DNA of 64,000 nucleotides from Amphiscolops sp. MND2022 (Eukaryota), in assembly GCA_964187785.1 (NCBI GenBank), contig OZ076416.1, positions 41,478,001 through 41,542,000 on the forward strand. Direction: 5' to 3'. Both the position numbers and the translations under genes were made by a program. Positions 36,981 to 62,172 of this stretch are shown one piece after another (position 1 is the stretch's first letter; each line of letters begins with the position of its first letter). The notes below the pieces were generated by a model. It was not told the origin of the DNA, made no database searches, and worked only from the letters and a program-made list of their open reading frames with translations.

Positions 36981-39900
36981 TCAATTCTTCTTGTTCCTTG
37001 TCGCCTTATCTTTTGCTTTTGGAGCATCAGACCCAACATTAGTACAGCGCGGCAAAGAAATTGTATCCTTTCCCAAGGCCGAACGAGGGGATGGTGAGCT
37101 GTTGCTGGTGCCAGTGTCACTCCCGCAAGTAACATCACCGTCGTCAGGAAGACATAGATTAGGAGGGGCGATAACAACCTTCTTGTATGAGGTCTCGAAC
37201 GAATTCTGCAATGTTACTCTTCTAGCATTGCTTCTTTTTAGAAAATTCCAGACCGAAAACTTACGGTCGTGAAGCAAATCTTTTTCACTGCCCAACAATC
37301 GGAAAACACGGGAAATTGATTGTGGGTCGCGATACAAACTCGACACGTTTGGTACATTTGTAAATGATATCTGTACACCTGCCACACATGAACGAAAAAC
37401 ATCTGCATCAGCCCCTAATTCTGAAATAGGAATCACGAAAGGGACAGGAACTTTAACCAACGGGGGTAAACACAAACTAGCATATTTGAATACCTGATAC
37501 AATTCGGGACGACACTGCATTTCGTAGTGCGAAACTAAAAACTGGAACCAGTCTTCAGGCTGAAGGACCTCGCAAGCTCTAAGCTTCGTGACAAATGAGC
37601 GATACTGACTGATGGTCTTAGTTTTCTCACTTGAAGTTAACCAACCAACACTCACAAAGTGACTAGTAAGGCTTTCCACTGCAGCGACATATTGATCCTC
37701 AGTTCCGTGCAAAATAACAGCCGAATCAAATCATGCTAGACCATGAATCAAACTGGATTTGTTGATCTCATGCGACAGAAGAATTGCACAGAATGATTTA
37801 CAGAAGGATATGGTCTGCTCAACGAACTTGCCGGGGCGCGGAAGCTTACTGGTGGTAACAGGCCGATGATAATCTTCGCTGAGATCGAATTGGTCAGCAG
37901 TTTTGAAGGGCAAATCAGTCCGGCTGTATACAAAGACAGCATACTGGTTGTATAACCTAAATCAAAGCACCGAATTGATTGCGAGTCTCTGAGAATGCGG
38001 AATCATCTGAAACATGAAAAATATTAATTGAGATAACACCAAATGATGGGCATTAGACTTGCAAAGCGTCAACATACAGCTTTGAAATGACGTCTATGCA
38101 CTACAATACAGCTTTTAATAGATAATTATACATCACTGTGCGGTTTTGAAAAACGCATATGCATCATTATGCGGTTTTCAGCGTGTCACTATACGTTACT
38201 ATACGTTTTTTAATGGACGAATATACGGTATCATGCGGTTTTCAACCGGTGACTATGCGTCACTATACGGATTTCAGTCAGTGTTTATATGTCATTGCAC
38301 ACAAGACAACTGGCGTAAGAACAAGCTACAATGATCTAGCTGGTGAATATGCATTACTATGCGGAATGTTATAAAAGAGCATTCACCACCAAGCGAATGG
38401 TGAACTTTGATTATGCGGTACCATACGGAAATTGTAATATCGTATATACGGCATCCTACAGAATTTGAAGATCAGCCACAAAGCAATGAAAGAAAAGGAA
38501 TGAACATGCTCATGATCTTATGCAAAGTGCATAAATGATTACGACAACGAAAAAGGTGTACGAAATGCAGCATGACTCAAAAGAAATCCTTCGTTGATTA
38601 GAACTAGCAAATAAACGGCGAATGAAGTTACGGAAAATGATTAAACAACTTTTGGACAAAATACCATATGAAAAGTCGAGAAATTGTGTGAAATTTATAC
38701 TAACAGTGATCAAGAACACAGCGGATAATGAATAACCTAGCCAAGTACGCCGTATCAAGGCGGAAGCACTCGTCAAGGGTGTTGGGCTATAATGACAAAA
38801 GAGAACTCAGAACGAGGAAAAAATCGAAATAATACCTCGGAAAGAAACAATGCAAACCTCTCGCATGTGGAACCTGTAAGAAGGAAGCCGAGACACTCGG
38901 TTTAGATGGTCAAGGACTTTATCCCAATGGATAGACAGGGTCTCAATCAAAACGGATGCTTCCTTCGGAGAATATGAGATGTCTATCACACACTGTAAAA
39001 CAAATGGTTTTAACACAGGAATTACTATGGCTATATTCATCGTGTGAACGAAACCTTACTTTGTGAAGGGTCGGAAGTGATTGGAGCCAATCTCTGTCTA
39101 GAGCTGTCCGCAGTTTCAATAAAAGAAAATCCAAGATAGTGCGGTAATCATGTCTCTCAAGGATTCGAGACGTAGGCAGGGAAAAGCAGCGTTCTAATTC
39201 ACTATGGCCAAATCCATTGACAGAGGTGGGTCGTAGGCGACCGGGCAATGAAGCCTTGAAACAGGAATTAGGAGTTTCCGGACAATCAATAAGGCAGATG
39301 CAAGATGAGTGGACATCAAATAAACTCAAGAAGGATGCAACAACACCCATCATCTTCTTCGGAACCAAAGTTCCACGTGGGCCAGTTCCAAGACAGACTT
39401 GGTAGAAGACATTGCCTGCCCAGAAATTCAGAAAGATGTGCGTCTCAAATTGGTTGTTTTGGAAAGATAAAGAATATGTCTCGTTGCCAGAAATGGAAGT
39501 GACACAATGTTGTTGCAGTTCGCGAAACATGAAAACAATGATACCCTGCAAAGAAGAATATGTTGTATCAGAGAATGGAATTAGCTGAACTATGAAAGGA
39601 TAAAAGTATAAGTATACTCACATATAAGCGCTCTCGGTTTCAACTGAAAGTGGACTCCTGGCTGTTCCCTGGGACGAGTCGAACCATTTCATTCCACATC
39701 CCCGAGAGAGTGTCCACGTCACCACCATGGCGGAGTCCGTACTCGAGGATAGCAATTTGTGAAATGACATCTTCGCTGGGATTGGAAGCGGTGGAGAAAT
39801 CAAGGAGTCGATCCTGTCCCACTAGAAGGCGGCATGCATCTAACTGACGCGCGATCGGGTAGGTCTCTTTGGCTACCCTCTTGGCTTCTTGTAACGCACT

Positions 39901-41120
39901 TCCGGTGAGGGCCTTCTCTGAGCAGTCATATATAGAAACCCCTGGTATTTCTAATCTAATGCGGTGTTCTTTGATTAAATGCGAATCAGTTTTGAAATGT
40001 GAGAGAAATTCAAGGACTCCTCTACTCATGAGCGATAACTCCACCCTGCATACCCGACACCACCACTTATAAGGCGTCTTCTGGCGGTCTATCGGTCCGG
40101 TGGCAAAGAATTTCAGAACTGGGTGTTTACGCATCATGTGGGGTTTTAAGGAGTATTTAGGGCTACGCCGTTTGCCACTTGGGACTGGCACATCTTCGCA
40201 ACTTGATTGAGTCATGGGCTCGTCCGGATCTCGAACCGTTGTTTCTCTTACGGGTCCTTTGTCTGGAGAGACCGGCGAGTCTTCAATCACACTGAATGTG
40301 AAATTGTTGGTGGAAGCCGGATCGGGGTCGTTCAACACTGTCTGAGGGATTATCCCCAAAATACTGGTAATAGCTAGAACTTCTCGTCTGGTAATAACCA
40401 TTTTCGGAGGATCATCAGAGCTCAATCCTTAGATTTCATCAGGAACTGGTATATCTCTAAGCGGATTTTCTGGAGTTGACTCACTAAGCGGAACTCCGCA
40501 CCTGATCATCTGAGAGGTTTCTGTTGCATGATCTGTCTCCTCCGCACGTTTAAGAAAGGAAGAAAATCTGGGTGAAGTGGTTTGGTAACTGTTCAGAGCT
40601 TCAGCAGCTTCAGTGACATCTTGCAAAAAGACAACAGCGGACTTACGTCACAAGCAGGATTTTGCGGGGAATCTCTCTTGTCTGTCTCAGTCGTTTCTTG
40701 AATGACGAGTACCTTTGGAGATAAGCATGCGTCTAAATTATCTACAATCACTTGCTCTATCCCGTCGTCATTTCGAGTTGTGGATTGTTCAAGTGGTTGG
40801 GCAAATCCAGGAGGATCTGCAGTAGATTGGGAGGTCAAAACAGGAGTATTTTCCGAAGTAGATTGAACCGGTTGTGGAGGATTCTCTGATTCAATTGCAG
40901 CGACTTCAAGCGGAATATATACTTTAGTAGGGTACCTAGCCGGCGACTTCTGTGTAGATCCGAATTCAACTGAAACAAATTGATTTAATGTCGATTTGAA
41001 TAAATATCTTTGATGAGCGAAAGTGATCCTGCGGAACAACTGAAACCGGACGCGGTGTAAGGAAGTTTCAAAATTGGGCGGAAGTAGCTCAAGATCAAAC
41101 CGGATGTAGAAATACTCCAA
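36981..41120 (-). mobile_element. Decayed large DNA-transposon-like ORF (hAT-like transposase candidate)
   Basis: Consecutive - strand ORFs. One has a BED-like C2H2 finger (WWCRVC...SHFKTDSH, 39640-40425). The last has WFQFL...PELYQVFKYASLCLP, reminiscent of a hAT dimerisation domain (36981-37712). No DDE triad or terminal inverted repeats (TIRs) identified. Confidence 0.45.
38136..38456 (+). repeat. ATGCGG/ATACGG motif cluster 1
   Basis: Several ATGCGG/ATACGG hexamers in an AT-rich island that interrupts the hAT-like ORF. Confidence 0.6.
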
Positions 41121-41773
41121 AAGAAATTCGAAAATTGGTTTTCATCACGAATAAATCAGTTTTCACTGATTAGCCTGGCCAGCTATTCAAATTGAAATTC
41201 GTTTCTGATCAGAAAACTCTCAAATCTTGAATCACAAACCAAGCAATAATTGGAACCTTTCAGGAGAAGTTGAAGTTGGCAATTTGTAGCCCCAATTTGC
41301 AAGATCCTTCCGAGGGGTCTGTTGTCCTCTGGAGTTTCTGCGATTAGGGGAATCCATTTGCAGCGGAAATGAGGAGTAAAGTGAGCGGATAACAAGTTGA
41401 ATTGAATTTGCGAAGCAGTTTTGACAGATGGGAATAAAGATTGGATCAGAATTGGAAATGGAAATGACAAAATTACTTTGACTGAAACTGATACGAAATA
41501 CAAAGAGGACTATAATCAACACTAGGTAATTCAAACAAACTTCATTAACAATTGAAGGCGTGACGTAAAAACGAAAGGCAAAAGAGCAAATGAATGCTGA
41601 AATTTGCGCACTAATGCAGAAAATACTTTAATCTGATTGGTCGAATAATTGCCGTTCATTGCTGCCAGAATGGACGATTACGCAATTATCACAATCAGAA
41701 AGCACCAGCAATGACATTCTCATTAGTGGCCATCATGCGACAAAAGAAGGAATTTACCACTTCTTATCCGGTA

Positions 41774-41895
41774 GTATGCGGAAATTTACGACCGCATATG
41801 CGGCAGGGTACGGAAATTTGCCACTACACATGCGGCAGTATGCGGAAATTTAGAACCGCGTATGCGGCATGAGGCGGAAAATTAACAATACGCGG
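41774..41895 (+). repeat. ATGCGG motif cluster 2
   Basis: ATGCGGAAAT / ATGCGGCA repeated several times in about 120 bp. Confidence 0.65.
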
Positions 41896-42283
41896 AAAGT
41901 TGTTATCTCATATTCTGAAGAGCGTAATGGACAAAACTTCAGTTTCTTGAGACACTGTGATGTTCAGCAGTTGGAACTACATTATTGGACATGCAAACAA
42001 TGATGATCTACTATCAAAGCACATTTTCACACGTCATCAAACTGATATGGACGGAACGAATGATGAAAACATACAAGAAACATGATATAATGTTCGTTTA
42101 TTTTCCTAGATGTAGCGCACTTTTCAAGTGCGGGACTTAAAACGAAACGTTGATGAACTATATGTGAATATATCCTTTTCATAAGAATAAATCAAAACTT
42201 TTAGTTCCGAAAACCTTCTTTCATGAATGTGAATTTTCCTAGTCATGCAAGTTTGGATATATACTTCATCCTCACTTCGTTTT

Positions 42284-42510
42284 TGTTTTAAAATATAAGA
42301 AGTCATAGCATGTTTCGAAGCTAGAAACAAGATTTTTGTTATGTATGAACAACTTCTCCAGTTAAAACAAAACACGCTTTTTGTATTTCAGCGGGAGATA
42401 ATCATTAACTTCTGATGTTTGTTTTGTAAATCACTTTTCTGTTAACTTCTCTGAATACAGTTGAATTGAAACTAACAACTCTTCGTCTCACTCAGCCTCA
42501 AAAGTCAAGA
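42284..42510 (+). repeat. Copia 5' LTR (TG...GA)
   Basis: Direct repeat of 47312-47538, followed by the PBS. Confidence 0.93.
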
Positions 42511-42522
42511 GGTTATGCGGCC
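42511..42522 (+). promoter_or_regulatory. Copia-type PBS GGTTATGCGGCC (half-tRNA-iMet priming type)
   Basis: Resembles GGTTATGGGCCC of Drosophila copia, which primes from an internal fragment of initiator tRNA-Met. Confidence 0.7.
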
Positions 42523-43223
42523 TTAATCAATCATCTGAAACAAAGGTTGCTGTCACTTTCCGATGAGAAGTCACTTTTCGATGAGAAGTCACTTGAACAC
42601 TGCAGCGAATGATGGCAAGTAGCAGCGAGAAGTAAGAAGTCAAGCAGAAAGAAGCAATCTTTTTTCCAGTGAACCACTACGCTATGCAGTCAGAAGTCAA
42701 CTTTCAGAGATGAGAAGCGAGTAAACTTTTCAAAACTCAGACTCAAACTTTGTTGATGCTTTTGTAAATTTTCTTGCTGTTTTTCCTAGGCTGAGTAGAG
42801 TTTAGTTTGAAGTTGAGTGAGAGTACACATAGGTAAAAATTTGTTTTTGAGAAAATTTTCCGGAAGACTCAAAAAAAAGACTTCAGTGAAATTTAACTAG
42901 GCTTGACAAAAAAAACTTAGTGACAATTTTTCTGACAGACGTTTCGATAGCATTTCTTTGTTTTGGTTGATTTCCAAAGTGCACGTCGCTATGCACTGCA
43001 TAGCATGACGGGAAGTAAGAAATTTTCTGAGCTTCGTTTTTGCTTCAAAACGCCTGTCATTCGCGTTTTTTGTTTGTAAGTTGTTTTTTTGCGACCCAGA
43101 CGATCGCCCTTATATGTAAAACAATCGAAGCAACATTCTCACAAGGTCAAGGTGCACAAAGACATGTTCAAAAGGCCTTAGCGTTTTGAGTGTCTTTGTT
43201 AATTTACACAACTGAGATATAAG

Positions 43224-44378
43224 ATGACTAACCGTACGGTACAGTCTAAGTTGGAAACGTTGTTGTTTTCGGGAAAAGACGAGGATTTTGAATATTTTGC
43301 TGAACGTTTTGAAGCTCGGCTTCATTTATTGAAATTGAGAACTGTCCTTCTTGATCAGGAGAATTTGCCTGAGGAAACAGATGCGAATTTTGCTAGTGAG
43401 CAGAACAAGTTGAAAGAAAAACAGTTCGAAATTTGGTGTGAACTGGTTCAATGTCTAGATAGAAAGTCATTGAGTTTAGTTAAAACAGCGAAACCTTCCG
43501 GTACTCAGGCTTGGAAACTTTTGCAAGACTGTTTCAAAAGTCGTCAACGTCCTCGTATCCATCAACTTTTGAATAAGTTAACGAACCTAAAAATGTACTC
43601 ACAAGAAAGTATGCGCGATTATTTGATGAGAGCTGAAGAACTCCAGCTTAATCTAACCGACGTTGGAGAAAACGTTAGCGATCAAATGCTATGTTCGGTA
43701 GTTCTAAAAGGTTTGCCGAACAGCTTTGCAAGTTTCGTAACTGTTTTCAAGTTTTCGCATGAAGCTAAAACCTTTGCAGATCTAAAACGAGATCTTTTGA
43801 ATTTCGATAGTGATAGTTGCCGAGGTCAACCCGAACAGGGAACAAATTTCATGTGTGGTAAATTAGGCCACCGACAAAGTGAATGCAGAGCAAAAGTGTC
43901 TGTCATAGTGTGTTACGAACGTGGTGCAAAAGGCCACAAGGCAAATGAGTGCCCCAAAACGAAAAATAAGTCGAAAACACGAGCTCCGCGTGAGACGACT
44001 CAAAACAAACGTTTTTACACTAAGCGAAATGAGAGTAATCTAACTGCTGAAAAACAAGGTTTCTCGTTTCATACTAGTCAAGTACTTTCGACGTGTAAGA
44101 ACATAGATCTTTTAATAGACAGTGGCTGCACAAGTCACATGATAAAGGACGCTGAATTGTTCAGAGATTTGGACATTTCGAAAATGGGTAATGTTGAATG
44201 TGCGAACGGCACCGAATCTAGCATTGAAGGTCGAGGATCCGTTAGTTTCTTGGCAAAAGACAATCAAGGCCAAGATCAAATCTTGGAACTTGAACAATCG
44301 TTGTACGTTCCCCAATGCACAAAAAACTTAGTTTCGATAAAAAAAGCTGAACAAGCAAAATGCGAGCGTTCATTTTGA
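43224..44378 (+). pseudogene. gag: Copia gag-protease (UBN2-like gag, CCHC knuckles, LIDSGCTSHM)
   Basis: 384-aa ORF that frameshifts before the GAG-pre-integrase segment. Confidence 0.9.
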
Positions 44379-47292
44379 TGCGAACCCTCGTATAGTTCAG
44401 GATGAAAGATGTTTTCCGTTAAAGTGCGAAAATAACTTGTTTTATCTACAAGTTGATTGTTTGCATGAGCAAAGCAATGCCGCAACTGCAAGTCTTCAAC
44501 TATGGCATGAACGACTTGCTCACAATAACAAAATTGATGTTCGAAACTTGGCAAAGGCTGTAGTCGATATGAACATAGTTGATGAAAGAAACGAACCTTG
44601 CGATGTGTGTAACACCGAAAAGGCTAAGCGGTTACCGATAAGCCGAAAAGTTGCAAATAGAGCTAAAAAAACCTTTAGACATAGTCCACGTAGATATATC
44701 GCCAGTAAACACAATGTCGATAGATGAATTCGAGTACGCTCTAGGATTCGTTGATAGCTTCAGCAGACTCGGTGCTCTTTATCTATTAAGAACAAAAACC
44801 GAAGTCGAACGAAGCTTTTGAAGTTTATAGCTGAGCTTGGCAAACCTCGCAAGATTGTCACTGATAATGCTAAAGAGTTCAAGTTTGGAAATTTCGCTGA
44901 CATTTGTTTACAGTAAGGAATTCATCAGGAGTTTACTTGCGAATACACTCCAGAACAAAACGGTAAAATAGAACGAGTTTGGGGAACCATCGGCGCGATG
45001 GCGAGGTGTCTGTTGAAAACAGCAGGCTTACCTGAAACTTTTTGGTCGTTTGCATACTGAGCAGCTTTCCACATAAAAAACCGGTGCCTTCACTCTGCTC
45101 ATGGCATGACACCGTTCGAGAAGTTTTTTGACAAGACACCTGATTTGTCCCATTTTCGAGTTTTTGGATGTCAAGCATTCATGTACTTAGAGAAACCAAA
45201 GCGAAAAAAACTTGAAAGTAGAGCTTTGGATGGTTTTTTACTGGGCTATAGCAACAATTCTAAGTCATATCTGATCGGATTTTTCGAGGGCGCAGAGCTT
45301 ATCACGAAAAGTAGCCGAAATGTAAAATTCAACGAGACTAGTTTTCCAGGAAAAACACTTTTCGCAAACAATGAAAATGGCAGTGAACTTTTCTTCGAAC
45401 TCAACAAAAGGGGGAGTGAAGTAGAGTTGCAAAACACGGAATCAGTCGCCGATACACACAACTTGATAAAAGATGTGAATGAGTTGCCAAACGGTGTTTT
45501 AGGCGGTAATCCAGAAACTTTGGTTAACGAAATTTCCGACCAGAGTATAACACAAAATCAACCGCATAGTTGGACTGTGCATACTACGACTAGATACGGA
45601 CGTAAAGTCAAGCCGCCCAAAAGATACGCCCCAAGTACAAGCAGCAACTTGTCTTACAATTTAGGTTCGTCTGAGTTCGATGAAATTGAAACGTTTGCAT
45701 ACCATTGCGATTATGTTGATCAAGAGTTACCTAAAAGCATTGAAGAAGCACTTTCTTCTCCAGAGTGGTATCGTGCGATGAAAGCGGAATACGACTCTTT
45801 ACAGAAAAATGAAGTTTGGGACATTGTTGAAATGCCAGAAGGAAAAAACCTCGTTACAGATAAATGGCATTTTGCACTTAAGCGAAACAGTAAAGGAGAA
45901 ATTATTAGGCACAAAGCAAGATACGTGGCTAGAGGATTTAAACAAAAACGAAGTGTTGACTACGATCAAACATATAGTACGACTGTCAAAATGGTAACAC
46001 TTCGAGTTTTACTGAGTTCGGCAGTTCAAAACGAAATGAAGTTGAAACAGTTAGACATAAAAACCGCTTACTTGAACGCAGGTATAGAAGAAGAAATTTT
46101 TGTTGATCAACCACCAGGATTTGTTAAGAAAAATGCCAACGGCAAAAGCTATGTTTGTAGATTGAAAAAATCACTTTATGGATTGAAGCAGTCCGGTCGC
46201 AACTCGTTCAATACACTTAGAGATTTTTTGCTCAGCATTCAGTTCAAGCCGAGCAAAAGTGATCCTTGTTTGTTTTTGAGGGAACGAAACGGTCATAAGG
46301 ATTTTGTAGCAAGTTGGGTAGACGATTTACTCTACTGTAGCGATGATAATAATATTTACGAAAAATTTGAGAAAGCACTGAGCACAAAGTTCTTGATCAG
46401 TGAAGTTGATGACTTGAACTGGTTCTTGGGAATGCAAATCAGACATGGAAAAGGTAGACTAGAAATTTCCCAAGAAAACTACATCGAAAAATTACTTGAA
46501 AACTTTGGAATGAAAGATGTCAAAGGACTTTTTACGCCTGTTGCTGAAAAGCAACAAATCAGTAGGTCGGACTGTCCTAACGAAGGCAGCCAAGAACAAA
46601 AGGAGATGAAAAATTGTAATTTTCGTGGAATGATTGGTTGTCTGAATTACTTAGCGAACACAACAAGACCTGATATTACTTTCGCCGTCAGAGCTTTAAG
46701 TCGATACGTTCAAAATCCAGGCCGTAAACATTGGTTACAAGGAAAACACATTTTGAGGTACTTAAAGGCAACAAAGTGTAGGAAACTGACGTATAGAAAA
46801 TCCAAAACACTCGCGCTCACAGGTTTCAGTGATGCCGACTGGGCAGGAAAGTTAGATGATAGGAGGTCCACCAGTGGTTTTTGCTTCTTTTTGAACTCAG
46901 AATCAGGAGCTATTAGTTGGAGTTCTAAGTTACAGACAATGGTGGCGACCTCGACAGCTGAGGCAGAAACAATGTCGTTATTCGCAGCATCTCAAGAACT
47001 TGAGTTTCTGCGGGGCCTAGCGAACGAGATCGGAATTGACAATGAAAAGCCTACTAAGGTACATGTAGACAATCAGGCTTGTATCGCCATAACTAAAATT
47101 ACAGTGAATTCTCAGAAAGTGAAGCATTTTGCAATTAATTTGAGCTTCATACAAGAAAAAATAGAAATGCGACATTTGGATGTTGAGTTTTGTCCAACCA
47201 GTGAATTGATTGCCGACTTGCTAACTAAACCGTTGGCAAAAGTTAAGGTTGAAAAGTTCAGCAAAAGACTCTCCGGAGAATGTAACTTGTAA
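44379..47292 (+). pseudogene. pol: Copia pol: integrase (with stops and frameshifts), then intact RT and RNase H (ORF 45106-47292)
   Basis: Motifs LWHERLAH...CDVC, TPEQNGKIER, KARYVARGF, QLDIKTAYLN, LYGLKQSGR, WVDD and FSDADWAG. Confidence 0.92.
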
Positions 47293-47311
47293 TCGAGCTC
47301 CGAAAAGGGGG

Positions 47312-47538
47312 AGTTTTAAAATATAAGAAGTCATAGCATGTTTCGAAGCTAGAAACAAGATTTTTGTTATGTATGAACAACTTCTCCAGTTAAAACAAGT
47401 CACGCTTTTTGTATTTCAGCGGGAGATAATCATTAACTTCTGATGTTTGTTTTGTAAATCACTTTTCTGTTAACTTCTCTGAATACAGTTGAATTGAAAC
47501 TAACAACTCTTCGTCTCACTCAGCCTCAAAAGTCAAGA
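47312..47538 (+). repeat. Copia 3' LTR, preceded by PPT AAAAGGGGG
   Basis: Direct repeat of 42284-42510; its first base is A rather than T. Confidence 0.93.
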
Positions 47539-48114
47539 GTTTTATTATCAATGAGAATTATGAGTCATGTAACTCTTTGAGGTTTAGTCGATATTTTGTT
47601 TATATCTCATTAAAATGGTTCAACACTGTCAGGCGTGTTGGGTGAAGATGAGATTCTCCCTGAAAACTGGAGAAACACCTAAAATGGAAGATGTTTATAT
47701 CGAATTAAAAGGAAATTTGATAATTTTCGCGGATTCAACAATTTCTATCACAGAAAAGACCCAATAAAGAAAACGAAAAACCCCGAAATCATGACTCTCA
47801 GTTTTTCCGCGGGGTTTTGTTATAAGCGAAAGAAACGGAAAAGACAATCACCATATGGTCTTTTGACTCGCCCAAAAGCAGTAACTCCAACTGAAACAAA
47901 AACTACCTTTAAACCTTACCTGAGAAAATCATCCTACAACATAAGAAGAGAACATGAATAACCTGCAATTTACCCTTGAAGATAGCCCTTTGCTCTCAAT
48001 TCAATCTCCTGGGATTGTCGATATATCAAGCGATTCAGGAGAAGTATTTATTGTTCACCCAAAGATCTGTCCGACGTAGAGGAAAGATTCAGGGTTGGTG
48101 GACCAAGATCGGAT

Positions 48115-48780
48115 ATGTTGACGGCGTTCGTGGGTACAACTTCGGCAACACTTTTTGCATCTGGACAAGAAGACCCCTCAATTGTTGAGACAATTGACGC
48201 TGCTGGGACACAAATTGAGCGACAGATGATGGAAATCATCGAGGAGCATCGATTCAGTAGAGAGTCTTCATCAACTTCATTCGTTGATACGGAACTGGAA
48301 GACTCACCCATGTCGCCATGGGAGCCGGCTGAACCTTCGACACAACCTGTAAACAGCTACGGGAGGCCAGCTGTGGCAATCCTCCCTACACCAAGAAGCA
48401 ACAACCGCGAGACGACAGTGGTCAAAAGACCCATTCCTACTTACCCGCCTAATTTTGCAAACACTTACCCAATTTATCAACCCCAACAAATCACTGACCC
48501 TAGACATCAGCAAGCAGATCACCCTGTTAACGATATTCAACCAAAGATATTGGGCAACAATGGGGCCTTCTCCGCTACTCCCAAGGGTTTGCCTATATAT
48601 AGTAATGCACCAATAATGATCCAGATGCCGCCCCATGAAGGAAGCGCCCACGTTCCACAATTGATTACTGGATCCAACGCTAGACCCTCTCCTCACTTCC
48701 CGTTCCAATCGGGACATAGCACAAATCTACTGCTCTTGCCCTTTCAAAAAAACTGCAATATCAACATCTGCCCCCAGTAA
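48115..48780 (+). CDS. Orphan acidic/Pro-rich ORF (221 aa), function unknown
   Basis: Intact ATG-TAA ORF in a GC-richer island; its stop overlaps the next start (TAATG). Confidence 0.45.
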   Translation: MLTAFVGTTSATLFASGQEDPSIVETIDAAGTQIERQMMEIIEEHRFSRESSSTSFVDTELEDSPMSPWEPAEPSTQPVNSYGRPAVAILPTPRSNNRETTVVKRPIPTYPPNFANTYPIYQPQQITDPRHQQADHPVNDIQPKILGNNGAFSATPKGLPIYSNAPIMIQMPPHEGSAHVPQLITGSNARPSPHFPFQSGHSTNLLLLPFQKNCNINICPQ

Positions 48781-49010
48781 TGCCAAACGTCGCTGGATTT
48801 TGCGATTGGTGTGGTAAATGCTACGATTTGATAGCATTGGAGACGCTGGGAGAGTACCTTATTGCAACCGCTTATGACGGGGAGACGGTCAGGGACAGAG
48901 GTGTCAGGTCCCGTGCCTTTATAGATGGGTTCGAGGCTGCACTGTTCTGCTTTAATGGTGCGGGACTGTCGCAGCCTCATGGGTGCTCTGGGTCTGTTCT
49001 GCAAGAGTAA
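48780..49010 (+). CDS. Orphan small ORF (76 aa) with a CDWCGKC motif
   Basis: ATG overlaps the upstream TAA. AATAAA follows at about 49062. Confidence 0.45.
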   Translation: MPNVAGFCDWCGKCYDLIALETLGEYLIATAYDGETVRDRGVRSRAFIDGFEAALFCFNGAGLSQPHGCSGSVLQE

Positions 49011-49431
49011 AAAGGAAAACGAAGAAGCAGCTTGAAAGACAAACTCAATTTGATGAAACTCAATAAACTGTCTCCCCCCTTTTATTTCTTTGCTTTTATT
49101 GTCTCGTTGTTTATCCTAACCAACAAGTTAAGTCATGTAAATATTTATTTTATAGTTTCTTTGGTTGAATTGTTGAAGCCAGATGCGAATTAAGACATGT
49201 TGACCAGGTTTTCTTAACTTTTCACCCTAATTATTGCTTGAAGTTTTGAGTTGTTCAGTTGAATTTAGGCCATAATCTCTGAATGGAAGCAATGATTAAT
49301 CTAAACGTGACTTTTCAAATCAGTGAGTTAGCGTCACAGTACGAAAATTTGAAAATGAATACACTTCATCATGCAGTTTGTGATTAATAATTATGCACCA
49401 TCATACGGAGAGTTTCTGACGCATATACTGC

Positions 49432-49660
49432 AATATGCGGATTTTAACCACCGCTTATGCGGCACCATGCGGAAAACCGTAATTTCCTTGATGCGTTGTC
49501 ACGGTGATATTTGCACGTCACTATGCGGAAAATCGCCGGCGCTTATGCGTCAATATGCGGTTTTCCGCGTTTTTCATCATACGGTGCTAAACCATTATTG
49601 CATTGTGATTATTCGTTGATATGCTGAAATTTGAGACCGTATATACGTCATTATGCAGTT
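49432..49660 (+). repeat. ATGCGG motif cluster 3
   Basis: Multiple ATGCGG/ATGCGT/ATACGG motifs in the same orientation as clusters 1 and 2. Confidence 0.65.
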
Positions 49661-50022
49661 TTCCAGAGTTTTTGTCGTAGTTGTACAATACTTGTTTCTG
49701 CTTGTCATGCAATGTATATTTAGAGTTATAAATAGAATTACGACACATGATGTAATTCTTTTTATAGAATATGAAGACCATGACACCCAAAAAAACGGGT
49801 GTAATCGACACCATTTTTTCCTTGTGCTCAGGACCTTAGAACCCAATCATTCTTTGAAATAACTCCCGTTCAAAACAGTTGATAAAACCCACACTCCAAA
49901 CCACTGCAAAAGCAGTTCCTCAAAATCAACAGTTGTCCCAGTTTCCAATTTGTTTTGGTGAAATTTTCAGCTGAATTCAAATTCTTCCCCAACAAACCCA
50001 ACACATTTTTCACTTGAGAACA

Positions 50023-50593
50023 ATGGGAAATAAGAGAAACAGAAGGTCTAGAAGACATGAAACACCATCGCCTGACCGAGAATTGATTGAAGCACAAGTA
50101 GAAACACCAATGCAAGGTAATGAAACTTTAACTAATGTTAGTACTGTTATTCAGGAACCTTTAGGTGAAAACGAAAACAGATCTAGTCTGATAGAACCTA
50201 GTCAGATTAGTAACGAAATCCAAGTCTGGACAGAAAACTTCGAACAAAAGGACAATGACAGGATAATGAAAATGAGAGAAGAAATGGAGAACAAGTTTGA
50301 TGCAATTTTGAAAGAAATAAGAACAAGTAAAACAGCATCCACAATGACAAACCCTAGGTCTGAACCAAATGGAATCCACAATTTACAACCTTCGGGATCC
50401 AAAAATGATAAGTCTAGTGGAGTACGCGCATCTAATATAGAAAACTCAGGTACCGAAAATGAGGATAATCATCCCCTCAGAGCCTCTGATATGAGAGAAT
50501 TAAGGAATCCTGCTAGACCACTTTGTCGAAATGTACCGAATCTAGACGAAACAATAATATCAGAAGGGGACTCCGAGGAGGAGGATTATCACA
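50023..50593 (+). CDS. Intact 190-codon ORF stub in an orphan LTR-like segment (MGNKRNRRSRR...coiled coil...EEEDYH|)
   Basis: Stop-free from ATG 50023 to ...GATTATCACA at 50593, with the terminal A as codon position 1. Flanking DNA adds NM and a stop. Confidence 0.6.
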
Positions 50594-50850
50594 ATATGTA
50601 AAGCTTTTCCAAAGTTTCAAGCAGCTTCTCAAAATCGCAAAATTCGCAATTCATCGAGGTAGAAGTGCAAAAAGAAACCTTTTATCCAAGAACAAACGTT
50701 TTGATTTCATTGAACCATTTTCTGAAGTTTCCAAAGATGATAAAAACTTGAAATTTTCCTGATAAAAGTGGAACGTGTCTTTGATAAATGTACACAAGTT
50801 TTGCTTTCATCTAGTATGATTATTGAGTTGGTGGAAACTTGTTGAGAAAT

Positions 50851-51245
50851 ATTCAAGAAGTGCTTAAGTTGAACAGATTTCCGATGAACGCTGAAACTAA
50901 TTATTTGTATACGTGACAAATTTCGGCAAACACGAAATAAACGAGTGTGTTCATTCTGTCACAACGAATATTCATGCACTGAACACAAAATCACTTGTTC
51001 AAGCTCGAGATTTTGGAATATTTTATTTTGTGTTCAAAAGTTGATTTCATCTCGCGTGAGTTTCAAGCTGTTGAAAACTTGATATTCAAGAGGTGCTTAA
51101 GTTGAACAGATTTCCGATGGACGCTGAATCTAATCAATCTATATACGTGGCACATTTGTGCAAATTCAAAATAAACGGGTGCGGTCATTCCATCAAAATG
51201 AATATTTATGCATTAAACATAAAATCATGTCTTCAAGCTTGAGAT
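50851..51245. repeat. Degenerate tandem duplication with a 233-bp period
   Basis: ATTCAAGA(A/G)GTGCTTAAGTTGAACAGATTTCCGATG at 50851 and 51084. Confidence 0.8.
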
Positions 51246-52336: not shown

Positions 52337-53487
52337 TTTTACGTCTGCAAGGTAAACTAATAAAAACACTTACAAAGCTTTACGACGGCCTGGTTGACAA
52401 CTTGCGGACAACTTTAAAACTTATTTGTCCAGGAAAGGCACTTGCAAAAATCACTTCTCAGAACCTTCAATGGGTGGTATTGCAACTATTTTCAATGGAA
52501 AATCTAGCTTGCGTTACTTTCAATAAGTTTCCGAAGTCGGTGAAGCAATTACTGCATCTTTGACTTTGCACTTATTCTGTTTCAAAATCATAAAGTAGCT
52601 TTGGAGCTCTAAATTGTGACTATGGGAATCAACTTAGCTGTCTCGATGAGTGGTAGCATCGTTGATCTGCTAAACCAACGATAAGTCCAAATCCTTGCGT
52701 CCTCGATAACTTTCTCAAGCAAAAATATCGCAACCATATGCAAAATAATAAATTGACGTTCGAATTTCGAAACAATATAATATCACTTGTTCAACTCCAA
52801 AATGATCTTCAATAGCCAGACTTAACTGAATTAATTGAACGAGAAACTTCCAAGCTTTCACTTTCTTCAATACTTGAGTAGCAAAGTCGACTGATTTTGA
52901 CCTCTACTTGGTTGCTGGTCTCTTAAGAGTTAACTCTGGTTACTTTTTAAATACAGAAAATACCTAATGGCGGATGTTTGTGGTTAAATTTATCATCACC
53001 GTACAAGCGCCTTGATATATAGAATAAGCAGAAACAAACTATTCAGCTGAGTTGAAGATATACACCGAAATATGTAAAAATATATATAAAAAGCATACAT
53101 TTACACGATTTTATGGTCCATGATTATATATGGTTATTTGAACTCAAAGCTTCTATCAGGTTACAAACACTCTATCGGCTTCCGCCTGGACAAGATATAG
53201 CCAAATATGACCTACTTGAAATGTGTATTACACAAACAGAATGATAAAGCACCAAATTTGTACTACATCAGAGGGAAGTCTGATTTTGATCCAGAAAAAC
53301 TTTTTTTTGAAATTTTTGTCTCCGATTCTCAATTTTCTTGCCCAAATCGGTCGAAAGCCATAAAAATCTGCTGTTTGCTACTTTTGACTTCGAAATCCAA
53401 AAAATAACGTCTTTGTAGCAGTTCGAAAACCAGGATTTTCGACCCTTTCTGGTCACAATTTCTCAAGTCAATTTTGAGGCACCAACA
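52337..53487 (-). repeat. BEL 3' LTR (TG...AA)
   Basis: Aligns throughout with 59953-61102, roughly 95% identical by eye. PPT AAAAAGGGGCCGGCGT precedes it. Confidence 0.92.
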
Positions 53488-53552
53488 ACGCCGGCCCCTT
53501 TTTCAGATTGAAAACGCTCTTTAAAAACTGGCACCAATTTTATCACAGGTCG

Positions 53553-56500
53553 TTACAGTGTACCGTTATGAGTTTTGATGAGAACAGATCTCACAACGCC
53601 ATCTTTTACTGGGTAAGTCTGAAGAACTCTTGCCATCTTGTAATGAGATCGCTTCACATTGTCTTCTATCAACCAAACAAGATCTCCAACTTGAAGATTT
53701 GGTTCTGACTTGTTCCATTGTGATCTCGCATTGTTCTGAGGTAGGTAATCTTTGACCCATCGTTTCCATATCATGTCTGCATAAGCTCGACAAGATCGAA
53801 CCATTTTCCGATGATTAGCATATAACTCCGCATTCGGGATAAAGGGTATACAAATGTTTGCTCGACCCAGAAGAAAATGATAGGGCGTAAGTGCTTCCAA
53901 ATCATTGGGATCATCACTTGCTGGAGTAATTGGTCGGGCATTCAAAGTTTGTTCAACCAAACACATAGTCGTAGTCAATGATTCGTCATTTAGTGCTCGA
54001 TTACCAAGAATGGCTATTATTGCCTTCTTGCAACTTCTGACTAATCGTTCCCAAACACCCCCAAATTGAGGTGCTCCGGGAGGGTTGAATTTCCATACAA
54101 CGTGTTTTTGAGCCAGCTCTGAAGTAATTTGGTGATGATTCCACGAGTTGATGTACTCTTTCAACTCTCTTGCAGATCCAACGAAGTTCGTACCATTATC
54201 GCTAACGATGGTTGCTGGTTTGCCACGTCTAGCAATAAATCTGTTGGTAGCTACCAAACAAAAATCTGTGTCAAGGCTTCGCACAACTTCGATGTGTACA
54301 GCTCTGGTAGTCAAACATGTAAATAAACAGCACCAACGTTTCATAGATCTTCGTTACAAATTTACTTCAAACGGACCAAAATAATCCACCCCAACGTTGG
54401 TAAAGGGATATGATTGATACTCAAGTCTTTCTGGGGGTAGGTCGGCCATAAGCGGGGTTTTACTCTGTGCACGTAATTTGCGACAGAATACGCAGCTACT
54501 TTTGATACTCCTCAAAGCATTCCGTAACCCGAATATCCAAAATTTTCGTTGAATAACACCTCTCACATACTCTACACCTTCCTGATTGTGTTCAAAGTGT
54601 AGATCTCGCAACATGGTTGTTACCATATCGTGTTTCGTAGATAACAATACTGGGTGACGTTGTTCAAAGCTCAAGTTAGCATGCTTGATGCGTCCCCTAA
54701 TTCTGATAACTCCTTTTTCATCAAAAAAGGGTTCAAATTTTGACAGGTTTCCGCACTTTTTAGTTTAACCGAAACTTCCCTTTTCATTAAAAAGTTCGGC
54801 GAAAGATTCTCTTTGAATCATTTTCAAAACTCGTTCTTCTGCTCGATTCAATCCTTCAACGAGTAAAATTTTCGAATGACTTCTATACCTCAAACGCAAA
54901 CAAAACGCCATAACACGGACGCATTTCGAAAAACTACTAAATGTTTTCCAATTAACCGCTTACTCCTGAGTCATTCTTGTGTTCGCTACTACCGCAACTT
55001 CAGCATGATCCTCACGAATCACGTTCACTGGCTGCGAAGATAAAGGCCAATCATCAGGATGGTCTCTCAACCAAGAGGGTCCAGTTAACCATTCACTGTC
55101 TGATAACTTCTCTATGGTTATTCCACGAGTTCCAATGTCAGATGGATTCAACTCGCCTCGGATATGTTTCCATTCATCAATAGTCGAATTTTCCAGAATC
55201 TCAGCAGCTGCTCTGTTGGCAACAAAGACGTTCTGCCTTTTGTCCGCTGAGTTTAACCATTGTAATACAGTAACGGAATCTGTCCAATGAGTAACACTAT
55301 TAATAGGTAGATCATGTTCTTGAATAATCAATTTTCTCAACCTCACGGAATATAAGACTGCTTGTAGCTCAAGACGTGGAATAGACAACTGTTTGATAGG
55401 AGCTATTCTACATTTGCCCACTACAAAGGACACTTCGATGCCCTCTTCGGTTTCTCCTCGAAAACAGGCAACAATGCACATTGCTTCCAATGAGGCATCA
55501 CTGAAAATATGTAACTGCACGTTTTTGGGATTTTGGAAAAATTCTTCCGGGGTAGGGATGTCTGCTTTATTGTCTGCATTTCTTTTACCCACTCGAGAAA
55601 GATTCGCTTATCTTCTTCGTTGATATTTTCGTCCCATGACTGACCTAAACAGATCCATATACTTTTCAAAAGCATCCTCATTCGTATGGTAAACGGTACA
55701 ACAATTCCCATGGGATCAAATACCGATGAAACAAAAGATAATACCACTCGCTGTGTCACTTCGTTCGGCCATCCTTTGTTTGGTCCTCGGCAGACTTGAA
55801 GACTGTTCGCATCTATTATACATTCTAGACCTAGGATGGGTGATGACTCTGCGTGTAATGTAAAGTCATTAGTATCCAAATGATCTTCCGCGGGGACAAT
55901 TTCAAGCACTTCAGGGCAATTGCTCGCCCACTTCTTCAAAGTGAAGCCACTGCGCTTCAGTGTTTCCACCAACTGCTGACAACATTCAATGGCCTCTTGT
56001 GGTGTATGAACACTCTTGACGAGGTCGTCCATATAGAAGTTTCTGTCTATTGTAGTTGCTGCACCGGAAACTCCTTTTTGTTATCTCTCTTTGTTATCTC
56101 TACTTGTTGGAAACCATAATTGGCACACGTTGGGGAACTCTTTGCTCCAAACACATGCCGGTTGTACTCAAAAATTCCAATGTTATCATCTGGTCTAACT
56201 CGCCAGAGAAAACGAAAATCTCTAAATTCTTCCTTTGGAACTGCTACTTGTAAAAACATTGACTCTATATCGGCAGTGATTGCTATCTGATGTTCTCTGA
56301 ACCTGAAAATTATTCCAACCAGATTCCGCAGTAGGTCAGGTTCACTAAGTAGCTTGTCATTCAACGGAACTCCCTTGAACTTTGAGGCTGCATTGCAAAC
56401 TCTTCTGACTTTGCCTGGATTGTGCGGATGTTTCACTGGATGATGAGGTAAAAAACATTGCGTATCATTTTCAAACTTGTCAATCTCCTCTTGATTGAGT

Positions 56501-57627
56501 TTTCTATCAAAACTACTTTGTATATCCTTTTCAATTGTAGCTTGATATGCATGTTTCATTTCTGAGTCCTTCTCTAGTCTCATTTCCATCGATAAGAACT
56601 GTTGATAAGCTGAGTAAAAATTGTTAGGCAGATCGTGATTGTCATCGGCCCACATTAAACTAACTTCATAACGCTCGCCGTTGTGTTTTGTTGTTCTTTC
56701 TAAAAGTGACAGTGCTCTCTTTTGTTCTTTGGATCGACCAGAGACATCACACACTGAAGCGTATGTATCCATGTCCCACCATTTTTTCATCTGATTTGCC
56801 AATTGGTTGGATGCAACTGAAAGATTACAGGACACTGATAGGTTACTCGTTTCCTTTTTTGGCAAGGCTCCGCTAATGGTCCAACCCAGTGCCGTTTTAA
56901 CTGCCCACGGTTGATTTCGTTCGCCTGATTTGTATTCCAGCGGCCTGATCAAATGATAAGCATCCTGACCGAGAATGACTTTAACATCAGTCATAGAGAC
57001 TCTTTTGTTAGGCAGATCAGATAAATAGTTGTACTCTTCTTTTAGGTTTCTGAAGTCATAGTCTTTTTCACCAACAATTAAGTTAGGATGACTACAGAAC
57101 GTTACAGTCTCTCCAGCAGTTTCTGCCTCGCTGGAACCCACTTTGGCTGTTACTATTTGCGTTTTCAAATCAGACAAACCGTGAATGCCAGCAACGGACA
57201 TTACTGATTCTTTACCTTTCAACCTGAGAAGATCAACCAAAGTTTGATCCATAAACGAAACAGTGGATCCGGTTTCACAGAGCGCAATGGTTTCAACACA
57301 TCTTTTTTCATTACCTATCGAAATAGGAATCAGCTGTAAGAAACCGCTGCTTCCCGTTGAAAGCAATGAAGAACTGCCGGCCCTGTTTTGAGACAGAGGA
57401 TCTTCCGTTTTCTTTTCCTTGGTGTCTCTAACAATTTTCTGCGAATCCGAATGTAGGAACCTGTTGTGGTTCTTAGTGCAACAATTCACACCACAAACAC
57501 GTTCTGATTTACAGTCTTTAATTGAATGTGCGATTAAGCAACAAAAGCAAAGTTTCAGTTTCTTCATTGTCTCGTATCTTTCATTACCACTTTGTTTTTT
57601 AAACTTGGCAAAGTTCATGATCGCCAT
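53553..57627 (-). pseudogene. pol: BEL/Pao pol: Cys-His knuckle, protease, RT (FYMDD), RNase H (HIFSDAS), integrase (GVDYFGPF, SDNGTNF) and DUF5641-like tail
   Basis: ORFs 56047-57627, 55421-56032, 54960-55592, 54354-54674 and 53553-54344. Confidence 0.92.
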
Positions 57628-59868
57628 CCTTTACCGGACATTGTTTGTTAGGCGCTGAAGTGGTTTTATTTTGATCATTCGACACAAATGTTGACGTCTT
57701 TACCTTTTTGGAAGAGCTTTTTTTATCTGACGGCGATCGGAATTGCACCGTCAGCTCATCGTGAACATAAGCAACTTCGTTGAGCCATTCGCTGAACTTA
57801 CAAAGATCAGCATGGTAGTATCCTTTGCTCTTGGCAAGGAAAAACCACTTGGTTTTCAGTTCAGGGGAAAACTTTCTCAAGGCTGAATTCAGAACGGACT
57901 CTGAATACAAGTCTCCTGTGAAACCAGACTGTTTCAAAACATTTACACAAGTAGTGATCAACTAAGCATACTTAATGATAGCCGCCGAGTCATGCGATTT
58001 GATGAATGGACTCCAACGGATTTGTTGCATCTGAGCATTGACAATTGTTTGTGGACGTCCGAAATTAGTAACCAAAGCATTCTAAGCTGCACTGTACATG
58101 ACTCCTGAGTGTCCGAGACCCACAACTGCCGCCTTGGCTTTGCCTTTAACGAGTGTTTTCAAATGACTCATTTTAGCATTGTCGTCAATTGGCGCATTAT
58201 GGATCGTAGCTGTAAATAAGCTAGACCACTCTGGCCACTCTAATGGGTCTCCGTAGAATTCAGATAGTTTGAGTTTCGGTAAACTTGTTTGCACAAAGTG
58301 TACAGGTGGTTGAATTTGCAATTCATGTTTGAAAGATGGAAACCGATTTTCAACTTCGATTGACGGTTTCCCAAATTCATATTTAGGCTTCGGTTCGTCA
58401 TTACCTCGCTGAAGTGAGGTGATTGTTTTTGGAAGAGTAATCACAGGGTTTTTCCTCTGAGGTGACTTACTCGTAGCCCTGTTTTGAGGTTGCGATGGCA
58501 TTGGTTGATTCTTCTGATGAGAATATTCTGGAAGTCTCTGAGGCAATGCACTCGACCCCCCTTGTTTTCTACTTCTCTCCTAGATTCGTTAGGTTGGGAG
58601 AAACACTTGTCAAAATTCTGATCACTTTGCTCTAACCAACTTTTGATGTCGCTGTTTTTGTCTTCTTCAAGTACGAGAGACATCAGGCTTGGAAAAATTG
58701 ACGGAGCACGAGAACACCCTTCAGCCTCTTCTATCTGCAGTCGCATTTCGTGTTGCTCAAGCGCTTTCCTGCTCTCCATTTCAGCAATTTCAACTTCAGC
58801 TTGTAAATCAAAGAGCTTCTGGTTCATCTCCAATTCCATTTGTTTCTTTGTTTTCTCCAATCTTAACTCTCGCAGTCTCTTCTCAATTTCCATTTGAGAC
58901 TTTTGCTCTGATACTTTAGCATGCATCTCTAAGCGCTGTCGTTCACTTACTTTTGACAAGTCGGAACCCACCTTCGATCCCCGAGGTTTGTAGATATCGC
59001 TTTTCGGCAAAGTTCTTGAAGGTGAAAGATCCACTAGCGAACGTCTCTTCGCTGTACTCAAAGTCAATGATCCTGTTTGTCGAGGAGCAACTTCCGCACG
59101 ATTCTCACCTTTATCGAACACTGTCGATTGGTTAACTTCTCTCAGCAGTTTCAATCCTCTTAGCAGAGTCTCATTCGCCTTTTGTTTCGTTGAGGCGCCG
59201 GAAACATTTACGTTGTCTTTCGAAAACTGTGAACGTACAACATCTGACTTAATAGATTCTTCAGGAAAAATTGTAACCCTTTCCATTTCATCAAGTCTTT
59301 CCTCAGGATTTGAAAAGATTGTTTTATTATCTAAGTTTTGGGAAGTGACATCAAATTCTGCACTCATTTCTTCTACATAGGGATTTGAAGTCTCAACATA
59401 TGACAAACATTTTTGTGTTACCTCTTGTAACAGCAGCTTAGCCTTTTCAAGCTCCTCTTCTTTTGGCTTCAAGAAATTTTGATGAAATGGTTGTAAAAAA
59501 CTTCTTTGTTGGTTCAAGATCTCTTCTAGTTTTTCCTCCAGGTCTTGAACTTCAGGTAAAACTGATTTAATTCTAGTAGCTCTCGCCCCTTTAATCATTA
59601 ATTGCTGGAGGTTTTCTGCCTTCGCTTGAAAATCATCCATTATTCGATACCAGTGGTCAGCTGCTCGACAATATTTCAAAACATCCTCATTACTTCTTGC
59701 ATACTTTGCAAGTAATTTTATACCGTCAAATTGTGGGAACACTTCTGTCCAATTAGAGAGACATTGATCGATTTTTTTTAAAAGATCTGTCTTTACTTCT
59801 CTGCGGGCGCTATGGTATCTGTCTTTGAGCATAGGCAGACCAAACTCAATTGTTTTCCCACTGGCCAT
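57599..59868 (-). pseudogene. gag: BEL/Pao gag: long coiled-coil N-terminus plus DUF1759-like segment (EFYGDPLEWPEWSSLF)
   Basis: ORFs 58441-59985, 58082-58546 and 57599-57961. Confidence 0.85.
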
Positions 59869-59933
59869 TGTTTTGCAAATAAATAAATTGGAAGTACTAA
59901 TTGCTTGAAAAAAAGTTTGCAAAATGTGCCTTC

Positions 59934-59950
59934 CCGGGTCGCGGCACCAA
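59934..59950 (-). promoter_or_regulatory. PBS, tRNA-His-like (TGGTGCCGCGACCCGG)
   Basis: Close to the complement of the animal tRNA-His 3' end (TGGTGCCGTGACTCGG). Confidence 0.7.
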
Positions 59951-59952
59951 AA

Positions 59953-61102
59953 TTTTACGTCTGCAAGGTAAACTAATAAAAACACTTACCAAGCTTTACG
60001 ACGGCCTGGTTGACAACTTGCGGACAACTTTAAAACTTATTTGTCCAGGAAAGGCACTTGCAAAAATCACTTCTCAGAACCTTCAATGGGTGGTATTGCA
60101 ACTATTTTCAAAGGAAAATCTAGCTTGCGTGACTTTCAATAAGTTTCCGAAGTCGGTGAAACAATTACTGCATCTTTGACTTTGCACTTATTCTGTTTCA
60201 AAATCATAAAGTAGCGTTGGAGCTCTAAATTGTGACTATGGGAATCAACTTAGCTGTCTCGTTGAGTGGTAGCGTCGTTGATCTGCTAAACCAAACGATA
60301 AGTCCAAATCCTTGCGTCCACGATAACTTTCTGAAGCAAAAATATCGCAACCATATGCAATATAAAAAATTGACGTTGGAATTTCGAAACAATATAATAT
60401 CACTTGTTCAACTCCAAAAAGCTCTTCAATAGCCAGACTTAACTGAATTAATTGAACAGGAAACTTCAAAGCTTTCACTTTCTTCAATACTTGAGTAGAA
60501 AGTCGACTGATTTTGATCTCTACTTGGTTACTTGTCTCTTAGGAGTTAACTCTGGTTACTTTTCAAATACAGGAAATACCTAATGGCGGATGTTTGTGGT
60601 TAAATTTACCATCACCGTACAAGCGCTTTGATATATAGAATAAGCAGAAACAAACTATTTAGCTGAGTTGAAGATATACACCAAAATATGTAAAAGTATA
60701 TATAAAAAGCATACATTTACACGATTTTATGGTTCATGATAATATTTGTTATTTGCACTCAAAGCTTCTATCAGGTTACAACACTCTATCGGCTTCCGCC
60801 TGGACAAGATATAACCAAATATGACCTACTTGAAAGGTGTATTACACAAACAGAACGATAAAGCACCAAATTTGTACTATATCAGAGGGAAGTCTGATTT
60901 TGATCCAGAAAAACTTTTTTTTGAACTTCTTGTCTCCGATTCTCAATTTTCTTGCCCAAATCGGTCGAATGCCTCAAAAAAATCGGCTGCTTGCTACTTT
61001 TGTCTTCGAAATCCAAAAATAACGTCTTTGTAGCAGTTCGAAAACCAGGATTTCCGACCCTTTCTGGTCACAATTTCTCAAGTCAATTTTGAGGCGCCAA
61101 CA
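59953..61102 (-). repeat. BEL 5' LTR (TG...AA)
   Basis: Followed on the - strand by TTT and then the PBS. Confidence 0.92.
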
Positions 61103-61107
61103 CTCGT

Positions 61108-61269
61108 TGTCGCGACCCCAGAGGCGTCACGGGACACATACAACGGGAGGAACGCCTGAAGAAGAGAGTGAGGAAATCAATCAGAACTGACCAGAATTAC
61201 CATAAACAAATCTAAAATAAAAAGGACAACAAACAGCTTGATATTATTTGAATAACACACAATCGTACA
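61108..61269 (-). repeat. Short 3' LTR (TGTACG...CGCGACA) of a separate minus-strand element, with PPT AGAGGAGGGGAA at 61270-61281
   Basis: TG...CA ends. The PPT resembles that of the 49-5653 Gypsy element. No coding body is visible in the window. Confidence 0.6.
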
Positions 61270-62172
61270 TTCCCCTCCTCTGTGCTGTAGCTAAAATACA
61301 TACATATGTAAATAATTAGATAATAATAGTAAATGCAGTATTTGTTTAGTCAACCTAGCCAGTGCGCTGACTGAAATTAATTCAATCAACGCGTTGACTG
61401 GGGATTCGCCTCAGCTGAAGTAGCAAATTTCATTAAGCCAATTCATATTGACCAATCAGATTCGAGCGCAGTTGTTACAAATTGAATAACTGAGTCAACA
61501 TCCCAGGCAACTTACCAGTCGACTGAAGCTGGGACGCTCGCTCAGTCGCACTACCTGAGTACTCAAATTATAATTAATCGATGCAATTTTCAAATGAGTT
61601 TGTCACAGCTTAAAAGAAGCTAAGTACCAAAAGAACACCTAATAAACGCCAATCAACGACATTTTGAGGTATCATAATATGTTTAATCCACTTTCCATCT
61701 GAGTCAATCTCCCAGGCAAGGCGCTATTTTTCCTTAATGAAACTACGGCCTGGACAGATGATTGAAAATAGTTAATTGAAATGCAACTTCCAACCACCTA
61801 AATTGCAAAGCCGTCCTTGTTGATTATAATATATAATAATATTGTGATAAAATAACCCCCCCGTGCTAACATTCACCTTCACATGTATTGTTCTGTTCAT
61901 GTATAATTGAGTCAACCGCCTGGTCAACCGGCTAGGCTACTCGAAATGAAACATGTTACCTGGCGTTCATCCAGGATTTTATTGTTCGGTTCAACTTAAA
62001 ATGCCATTTGACAGCCATAATTATCTGATTTAATGTAAATCAGTGCTGTTGAATTATTCATTTGAAGCTTTTCCCTTAATTTATTGGCAGTAAAATTTGG
62101 GATTATTCGATGACAATTTCACTTTCCTTTCCCGCTTTAGTAGCTAGGTTCATGAATTTCAGTGCCAACTTT

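Follow-up and report, generated by a model that had tools for sequence, protein, structure and literature searches.

In Ty3, gag starts after the primer-binding site (PBS). The GAG gene of Ty1 has a 53-nt 5′ untranslated region, starts before the PBS (nucleotides 95–104) and, in the published description, reads through it (PMC5454406). Ty1 p22 is described as a capsid-derived truncated Gag that is expressed and inhibitory (PMC4599808, PMC7175516), and RTL8 as a capsid-derived truncated-Gag inhibitor (PMC11684626). The Gag-derived N-terminal coil of mammalian Arc is reported to act in oligomerization and membrane association, and retroviral matrix to combine a basic patch with myristoylation (PMC9787330). 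Overlap with the long terminal repeat (LTR) has been described for pol (PMC11117352); for an LTR that holds 100–200 Gag codons, we found no description in the open-access literature searched.

We analysed a 64,000-nt stretch of the genome of Amphiscolops sp. MND2022 (the window), in which an open reading frame (ORF) at 50,023 lies in an LTR of the MGNKR family, a high-copy Ty3/gypsy-type LTR retrotransposon. As in Ty1, gag of this family begins ahead of the PBS and crosses it. The layout thus works like that of Ty1, yet the family is not a Ty1/copia element. Ty1 belongs to the Pseudoviridae and has approximately 14 codons before the PBS, whereas the MGNKR family is Ty3/gypsy-type, uses a tRNA-Leu primer site, carries a whole predicted helix in the LTR and has 190 codons before the PBS (114–217 in sister families), a stretch more than 10-fold longer. 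With Ty3 (Metaviridae-type) it shares the order protease, reverse transcriptase (RT), RNase H and integrase, TG...CA LTRs, a 5-bp target-site duplication (TSD) and a tRNA PBS, but it differs from Ty3 in a gag that begins inside a 1.6-kb LTR, an element length of approximately 16 kb, a long 3′ accessory region and an atypical purine tract. We put a probability of about 0.87 on the reading that the ORF at 50,023 is the first 190 codons of a gag gene begun inside the LTR, and that this copy, likely functionless, is the duplicate carried by the 3′ LTR of a truncated element.

The reading frame at 50,023 and its relatives

The frame is stop-free from an ATG at 50,023 to a TAA at 50,599–50,601 and encodes 192 amino acids in the ORF listing of the window. 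The first-pass annotation had described it as open to 50,593 and cut there at ACA, at codon position 1 as at 63,004, with flanking DNA supplying two residues and a stop; all of this was confirmed, the flank appending N, M and a stop after the LTR end. The 5′ boundary, which that annotation had given as not found, lies at 48,967.

50,023–50,601, plus strand: ORF of 190 LTR-encoded codons of the Gag N terminus, two flank-derived residues and a stop; contained in the 563-aa Gag of L013 and L019, with 119 longer homologues
48,967–50,593, plus strand: 3′ LTR of the MGNKR family, 1,627 bp, TGT...ACA, both ends common to relatives
50,594–50,601, plus strand: host flank, with the right target-site half ATATG and then the stop TAA; nearly unique

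A genome search with positions 49,700–50,900 returned 2,370 candidates, and scores were computed for the best 40. In the 39 best copies other than this one (91–97% identical), the match stops at query positions 894–899, which corresponds to 50,593 in the window, and many of the scored copies are same-strand pairs approximately 14.6–15.3 kb apart. All 29 relatives that we fetched end at this same base, so the boundary that had been proposed for checking is common to both sets. The flank after 50,593 has only two genome matches, itself included.

Directly after the LTR end, 15 of the 29 relatives carry TGGTGACAGG (one has TGGTGGCAGG); their frame continues into gag as YH-MVTG or with one residue changed, as had been predicted for an LTR followed by a TGG primer site. 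Because these relatives continue into a PBS and an in-frame gag, the 190 codons are the N terminus of Gag. The remaining relatives are 12 3′ LTRs and two copies with a TSD on both sides. In 5′ LTRs the end is crossed as A/TG GTG ACA GG (MVTG; slash at the LTR end), followed by a capsid-like region and a pair of zinc knuckles, and the open copies L013 and L019 encode a Gag of 563 aa that begins with the 190 codons. The same phase, and the MVTG and gag after 5′ LTRs, bear out the earlier suggestion that this second family and that of the gag at 62,662 belong to one lineage. The two N termini have no similarity by tblastn. Longer homologues number 119 (from 354 candidates, with identity down to 31%), and 111 of them contain MVTG, mostly at residue 183–196.

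The near invariance of MVTG, its in-frame ATG and the strong differences in N termini between families could also be read as two proteins: a separate, LTR-encoded accessory protein of 190 codons, and a capsid Gag that starts at the ATG of CA/TGG. We regard this as very unlikely. Open 5′ LTRs of four groups have no stop between the two parts, and the length before MVTG varies (mostly 183–196 aa) with the frame kept. Of the three phases in which the primer site could be read, a TGA in it closes one; the phase in use necessarily yields the M of MVTG, given the invariant CA end and TGG primer site. Two findings do count against a Gag start at the 190 codons: two ATGs lie upstream of that of gag, and the ATG at the junction of LTR and PBS could start a 373-aa Gag without these codons. 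A short Gag isoform beside the long one is possible.

Some loci depart from the simple arrangement. L008, L017 and L072 are preceded by internal sequence and followed by a PBS, as tandem elements that share one LTR. An identical 24-nt right flank follows the LTRs L020 and L018, which lie 15 kb apart, and a TSD brackets L020, a pattern that reflects either rearrangement or an assembly artefact. L028–L030 combine the same ORF with a different upstream LTR segment. Tandem repeats of 32 bp occur in the upstream part of the LTR (49,345–49,680) and in the internal region (38,127–38,295 and 41,751–41,891). An open frame of 221 aa (48,115–48,780, plus strand) lies just before and into the 3′ LTR and has a 357-aa counterpart at L034:2279–3349 (minus strand); neither has a Pfam match. 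The only Pfam match of the ORF at 50,023 itself, to a hAT-like RNase H (E 0.07), was below the cut-off and was rejected.

A Ty3/gypsy-type element, truncated in the window

TSDs of the MGNKR family are 5 bp in all nine checkable 5′/3′ LTR pairs. Its PBS, TGGTGACAGGAG, complements the 3′ end of the host tRNA-Leu(CAG), CTCCTGTCA (plus CCA), over 12 nt, and the PBS of sister family 2 has tRNA-Leu complementarity over 13 nt. The tRNA-end pattern has 840 genome matches, compared with none for a reversed control, and ARAGORN called a tRNA at one of five loci tested. Most of the 840 matches are on the forward strand, and a long array of tRNA-Leu-type 3′ ends, with a spacing of approximately 296 bp, occupies G000:C8:35587798–35641273.

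All pol domains (protease, RT, RNase H and integrase) were detected in family 2, the pol of which has Ty3 Gag-Pol as its best PDB match (E 2.6e-39); in the MGNKR family, protease and integrase were detected and the RT region is collinear. A Pfam scan of pol gave no match to the Pao peptidase. In Gag, Pfam places a zf-CCHC above the cut-off (E 6.5e-5) and a weak Ty3_capsid (E 0.008). The top matches in a fold search with Gag were capsids (HIV CA, PNMA2 and HERV-K), all weak at E 0.03 or worse, and none reached E 0.001. The tract before the 3′ LTR is conserved and only partly purine, ending in AAAGGTGCGGGAC.

Back as far as RT, where it is cut, the window copy is collinear with full-length relatives, and a second element is inserted in it.

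33,596–48,966, plus strand: internal remnant with pol from within RT through integrase, the 3′ accessory region and the atypical purine tract; 5′-truncated at 33,596 (blastn against L031–L034)
42,284–47,538, plus strand: nested element, putatively copia-type, with 227-bp LTRs that differ at 3 of 227 bases and TSD GTTTT

The first-pass annotation had called the segment an orphan and a solo or 3′ LTR. Internal sequence of the same element continues upstream of 48,967, to pol at 33,596, so this is a 3′ LTR and neither an orphan nor a solo copy; a solo LTR would be bordered on each side by host DNA and a TSD. Neither the window nor the 10 kb preceding it yielded a 5′ LTR of this copy, and with no 5′ end in that sequence its TSD is unpairable. 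The left junction (ATATG plus the LTR start) has no match in the genome.

Identity of the remnant to L031–L034 is 94%, 85%, 66–76% and 95% in different blastn blocks. The divergent block, 38,691–42,282 (66–76%, next to blocks of 85–95%), may be a recombinant between subfamilies in which the 3′ accessory region was swapped. Antisense ORFs lie between pol and the 3′ LTR (38,943–40,401, minus strand), one with a CxxC...H...H motif, and family 2 has an antisense ORF of 880 aa (L035:5804–8443, minus strand) that has no Pfam match. The copia-type assignment of the nested element comes from reading its ORFs at 43,224 and 45,106. Reading the ORFs of a minus-strand LTR element at 52,337–61,102 (LTRs of approximately 1.15 kb, 95% identical) suggests a BEL/Pao-like element; the family 2 LTR starts five bases past its end. 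At 6,552–6,632 lies an inverted repeat with perfectly matching 40-bp arms and a 1-nt spacer.

Two sister families in the window have LTR-encoded Gag N termini.

61,108–63,004, plus strand: 5′ LTR of family 2, 1,897 bp, with 114 gag codons (ATG at 62,662); 10 of 40 matches end at 63,004
7,857–8,216, minus strand: decayed LTR-encoded Gag N terminus of a third family (MPSTRK), open in relatives

Family 2 has its PBS, TGGTGACAGGAGT, at 63,005–63,017, a partner LTR that is 99.8% identical and the TSD CTCGT. Relatives of family 3 have 217 codons up to the LTR end and then run through MVTG (L094, 599 aa), with a PBS in matching phase at 4 of 14 loci. The P0112 subfamily, which is 35% identical, has 188 codons; a PBS follows at 7 of 19 usable loci, a count that leaves out the mis-oriented L071. 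As read from these loci, layout and phase are common to the P0112 subfamily, family 2 and family 3 (188, 114 and 217 codons). More distant Gags, known from proteins alone, have 114–223 residues ahead of MVTG.

Selection on the frame and on single copies

All 190 codons are open in 22 of the 29 fetched relatives, which are best matches and are biased towards intact copies: 11 of the 15 followed by a PBS and 11 of the 14 other (3′ or solo) LTRs. An open frame in a 3′ LTR is thus ordinary. The expected survival of the frame after seven random substitutions is approximately 75%, indels not counted. Tails past the LTR end range from 1 to 43 residues and are two residues or fewer in 5 of the 14 other 3′ or solo LTRs, and the two-residue tail of the window copy is like these.

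Between elements, pN/pS is 0.31, compared with 0.72 within 10 5′/3′ pairs, a pooled ratio that leaves out L020/L018. Variants shared by several of 19 elements (one LTR per element, 19 of 30) are 31.5 synonymous to 28.5 non-synonymous, and variants private to one of the 30 LTRs approximately 30 to 96; the two ratios differ (Fisher p 1e-4), and the private variants fit the site ratio (p 0.40). By part, pN/pS is 0.12 for the basic tip, 0.15 for the helix (aa 60–104) and 0.48 and 0.37 for the linkers. Four indels fall in the ORF, each in one copy, compared with 41 upstream. Between elements, the substitution pattern indicates purifying selection on the frame. Those changes that occur in one copy only look neutral, a reading against which it counts that the within-pair ratio (0.72) lies below 1.

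The window copy has seven private changes, two synonymous and five non-synonymous. Domestication of this copy as a host gene or proto-gene could draw on its open frame with a near-immediate stop, its conserved TATA box and start context, its near-unique flank and private changes that are slightly fewer in the ORF (1.2%) than upstream (1.9%). That difference is not significant (p 0.42), the split matches that of other copies (p 0.83), five of the seven changes alter the protein and short tails are found elsewhere, and we consider domestication extremely improbable. The seven changes are also indistinguishable from the selected class (p 0.26), in a comparison with almost no power. The duplicate at 50,023 gives no sign of selection keeping it and is likely a by-product rather than a gene of its own; what had been proposed as a self-contained peptide with a possible function is an automatic 3′-LTR duplicate of the Gag N terminus, with private changes like those of other copies.

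A proposed N-terminal arm and its LTR-borne duplicates

The basic and coiled-coil character noted at first inspection was recovered as a basic tip and one long predicted helix.

50,023–50,073, plus strand: basic tip MGNKRNRRSRR, aa 1–17, the most constrained part (pN/pS 0.12 among 19 elements)
50,215–50,334, plus strand: predicted single amphipathic helix, aa 65–104, candidate coiled coil (AlphaFold2 model of the L019 Gag)

The helix has a pLDDT of approximately 71–77, compared with less than 50 for the rest of aa 1–190, in a model of low overall confidence (pTM 0.23); five of its eight a/d positions are hydrophobic. Column conservation across 55 Gags is 0.85 for aa 1–20. Of the 119 homologues, 100 start with MG; among the 99 MGN starts, the sixth residue is N in 57 cases and S in 39, features that bear on a myristoylation motif. 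The N-terminal glycine is limited to the MGNKR family. The tip could be either a nuclear localization signal or a myristoyl-plus-basic membrane signal.

In its basic tip and predicted helix, the MGNKR Gag N terminus resembles Arc and matrix by analogy; it differs from them in being one predicted helix in a disordered chain, with no sequence similarity found, and a PDB profile search returned zinc knuckles only, with no similarity to the Arc N-terminal domain or retroviral matrix. By this analogy, tip and helix would likely form a matrix-like arm for targeting and oligomerization, which a disordered acidic linker would join to the capsid. The conserved capsid-like block begins near aa 250, approximately 60 aa beyond the end of the peptide at aa 190.

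The LTR also contains a candidate promoter and a short upstream ORF.

49,727–49,734, plus strand: TATAAATA, likely the LTR promoter (TATA box), identical in 29 of 29 relatives
49,771–49,839, plus strand: short upstream ORF of 22 aa, second ATG at 49,780, between the TATA box and the gag ATG

The same 8-mer lies 269 nt before the ATG of family 2, and both upstream-ORF ATGs are identical in 28 of 29 relatives. From the conserved TATA box, RNA would start approximately 30 nt downstream, near 49,760, which would make R plus U5 approximately 830 nt long and place the ORF in it. No AATAAA occurs downstream of the TATA box within the LTR; AATAAA/ATTAAA is present in the flank from 50,936. Priming by tRNA-Leu would copy R and U5, with the ORF, first. 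LTR regeneration during reverse transcription is established retroelement biology, and here it would put the ORF at both element ends: with the front third of gag inside the terminal repeat, the far-end repeat carries a cut-off duplicate. On integration, the 3′ copy would be cut at CA, after the first base of a codon, and gain a random tail from the flank.

With promoter, start codon and helix all in the LTR, each 3′ or solo LTR could be a ready-made Gag-N gene. Such LTRs, driven by their own TATA boxes, might collectively make random-tailed Gag-N peptides, the helices of which would bind Gag and impair particle assembly; no single copy need then be selected. Promoter, ATG and helix are present in every LTR, polyadenylation-type signals follow the window copy, and short open versions are many: among the best 150 matches to P0112, 118 are stop-free, 71 of these in frames of less than 300 aa (hand tally). 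Truncated Gags are described as inhibiting their own elements in Ty1 (p22; PMC4599808) and for RTL8 (PMC11684626), and the peptide at 50,023 resembles these in being a part of Gag with a coding sequence separate from that of the full protein. The precedents are, however, capsid-derived (Gag's C-terminal half and the N-terminal capsid domain), expressed and inhibitory, whereas this peptide, known from sequence alone, ends before the capsid-like block and has no capsid domain, the part from which p22 and RTL8 are built. The family has, moreover, reached high copy number (2,370 candidates), and private changes look neutral in all copies. We think it unlikely that this collective inhibition operates, and similarly doubtful that LTR-borne Gag-N cassettes are both a capsid-independent, built-in brake on copy number and a mass source of proto-genes. 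If they were, the peptide pool would grow with copy number, outlast solo-LTR formation and poison Gag assembly.

On our preferred reading, a Gag N terminus encoded in the LTR and duplicated at the 3′ end, the window locus is a passenger copy, and 'orphan genes' of 190–230 aa predicted from such LTRs are repeats; several LTR-encoded Gag N termini form separate clusters in the protein collection. A third of Gag is duplicated in each LTR, far beyond the case of Ty1, and the layout implies a first reverse-transcription product of approximately 830 nt and a primer site that also codes. The genome is thereby seeded with many promoter-plus-ORF cassettes that fuse to downstream DNA, so that RNA and ribosome data could test for gene birth from LTRs and for any feedback on the element.
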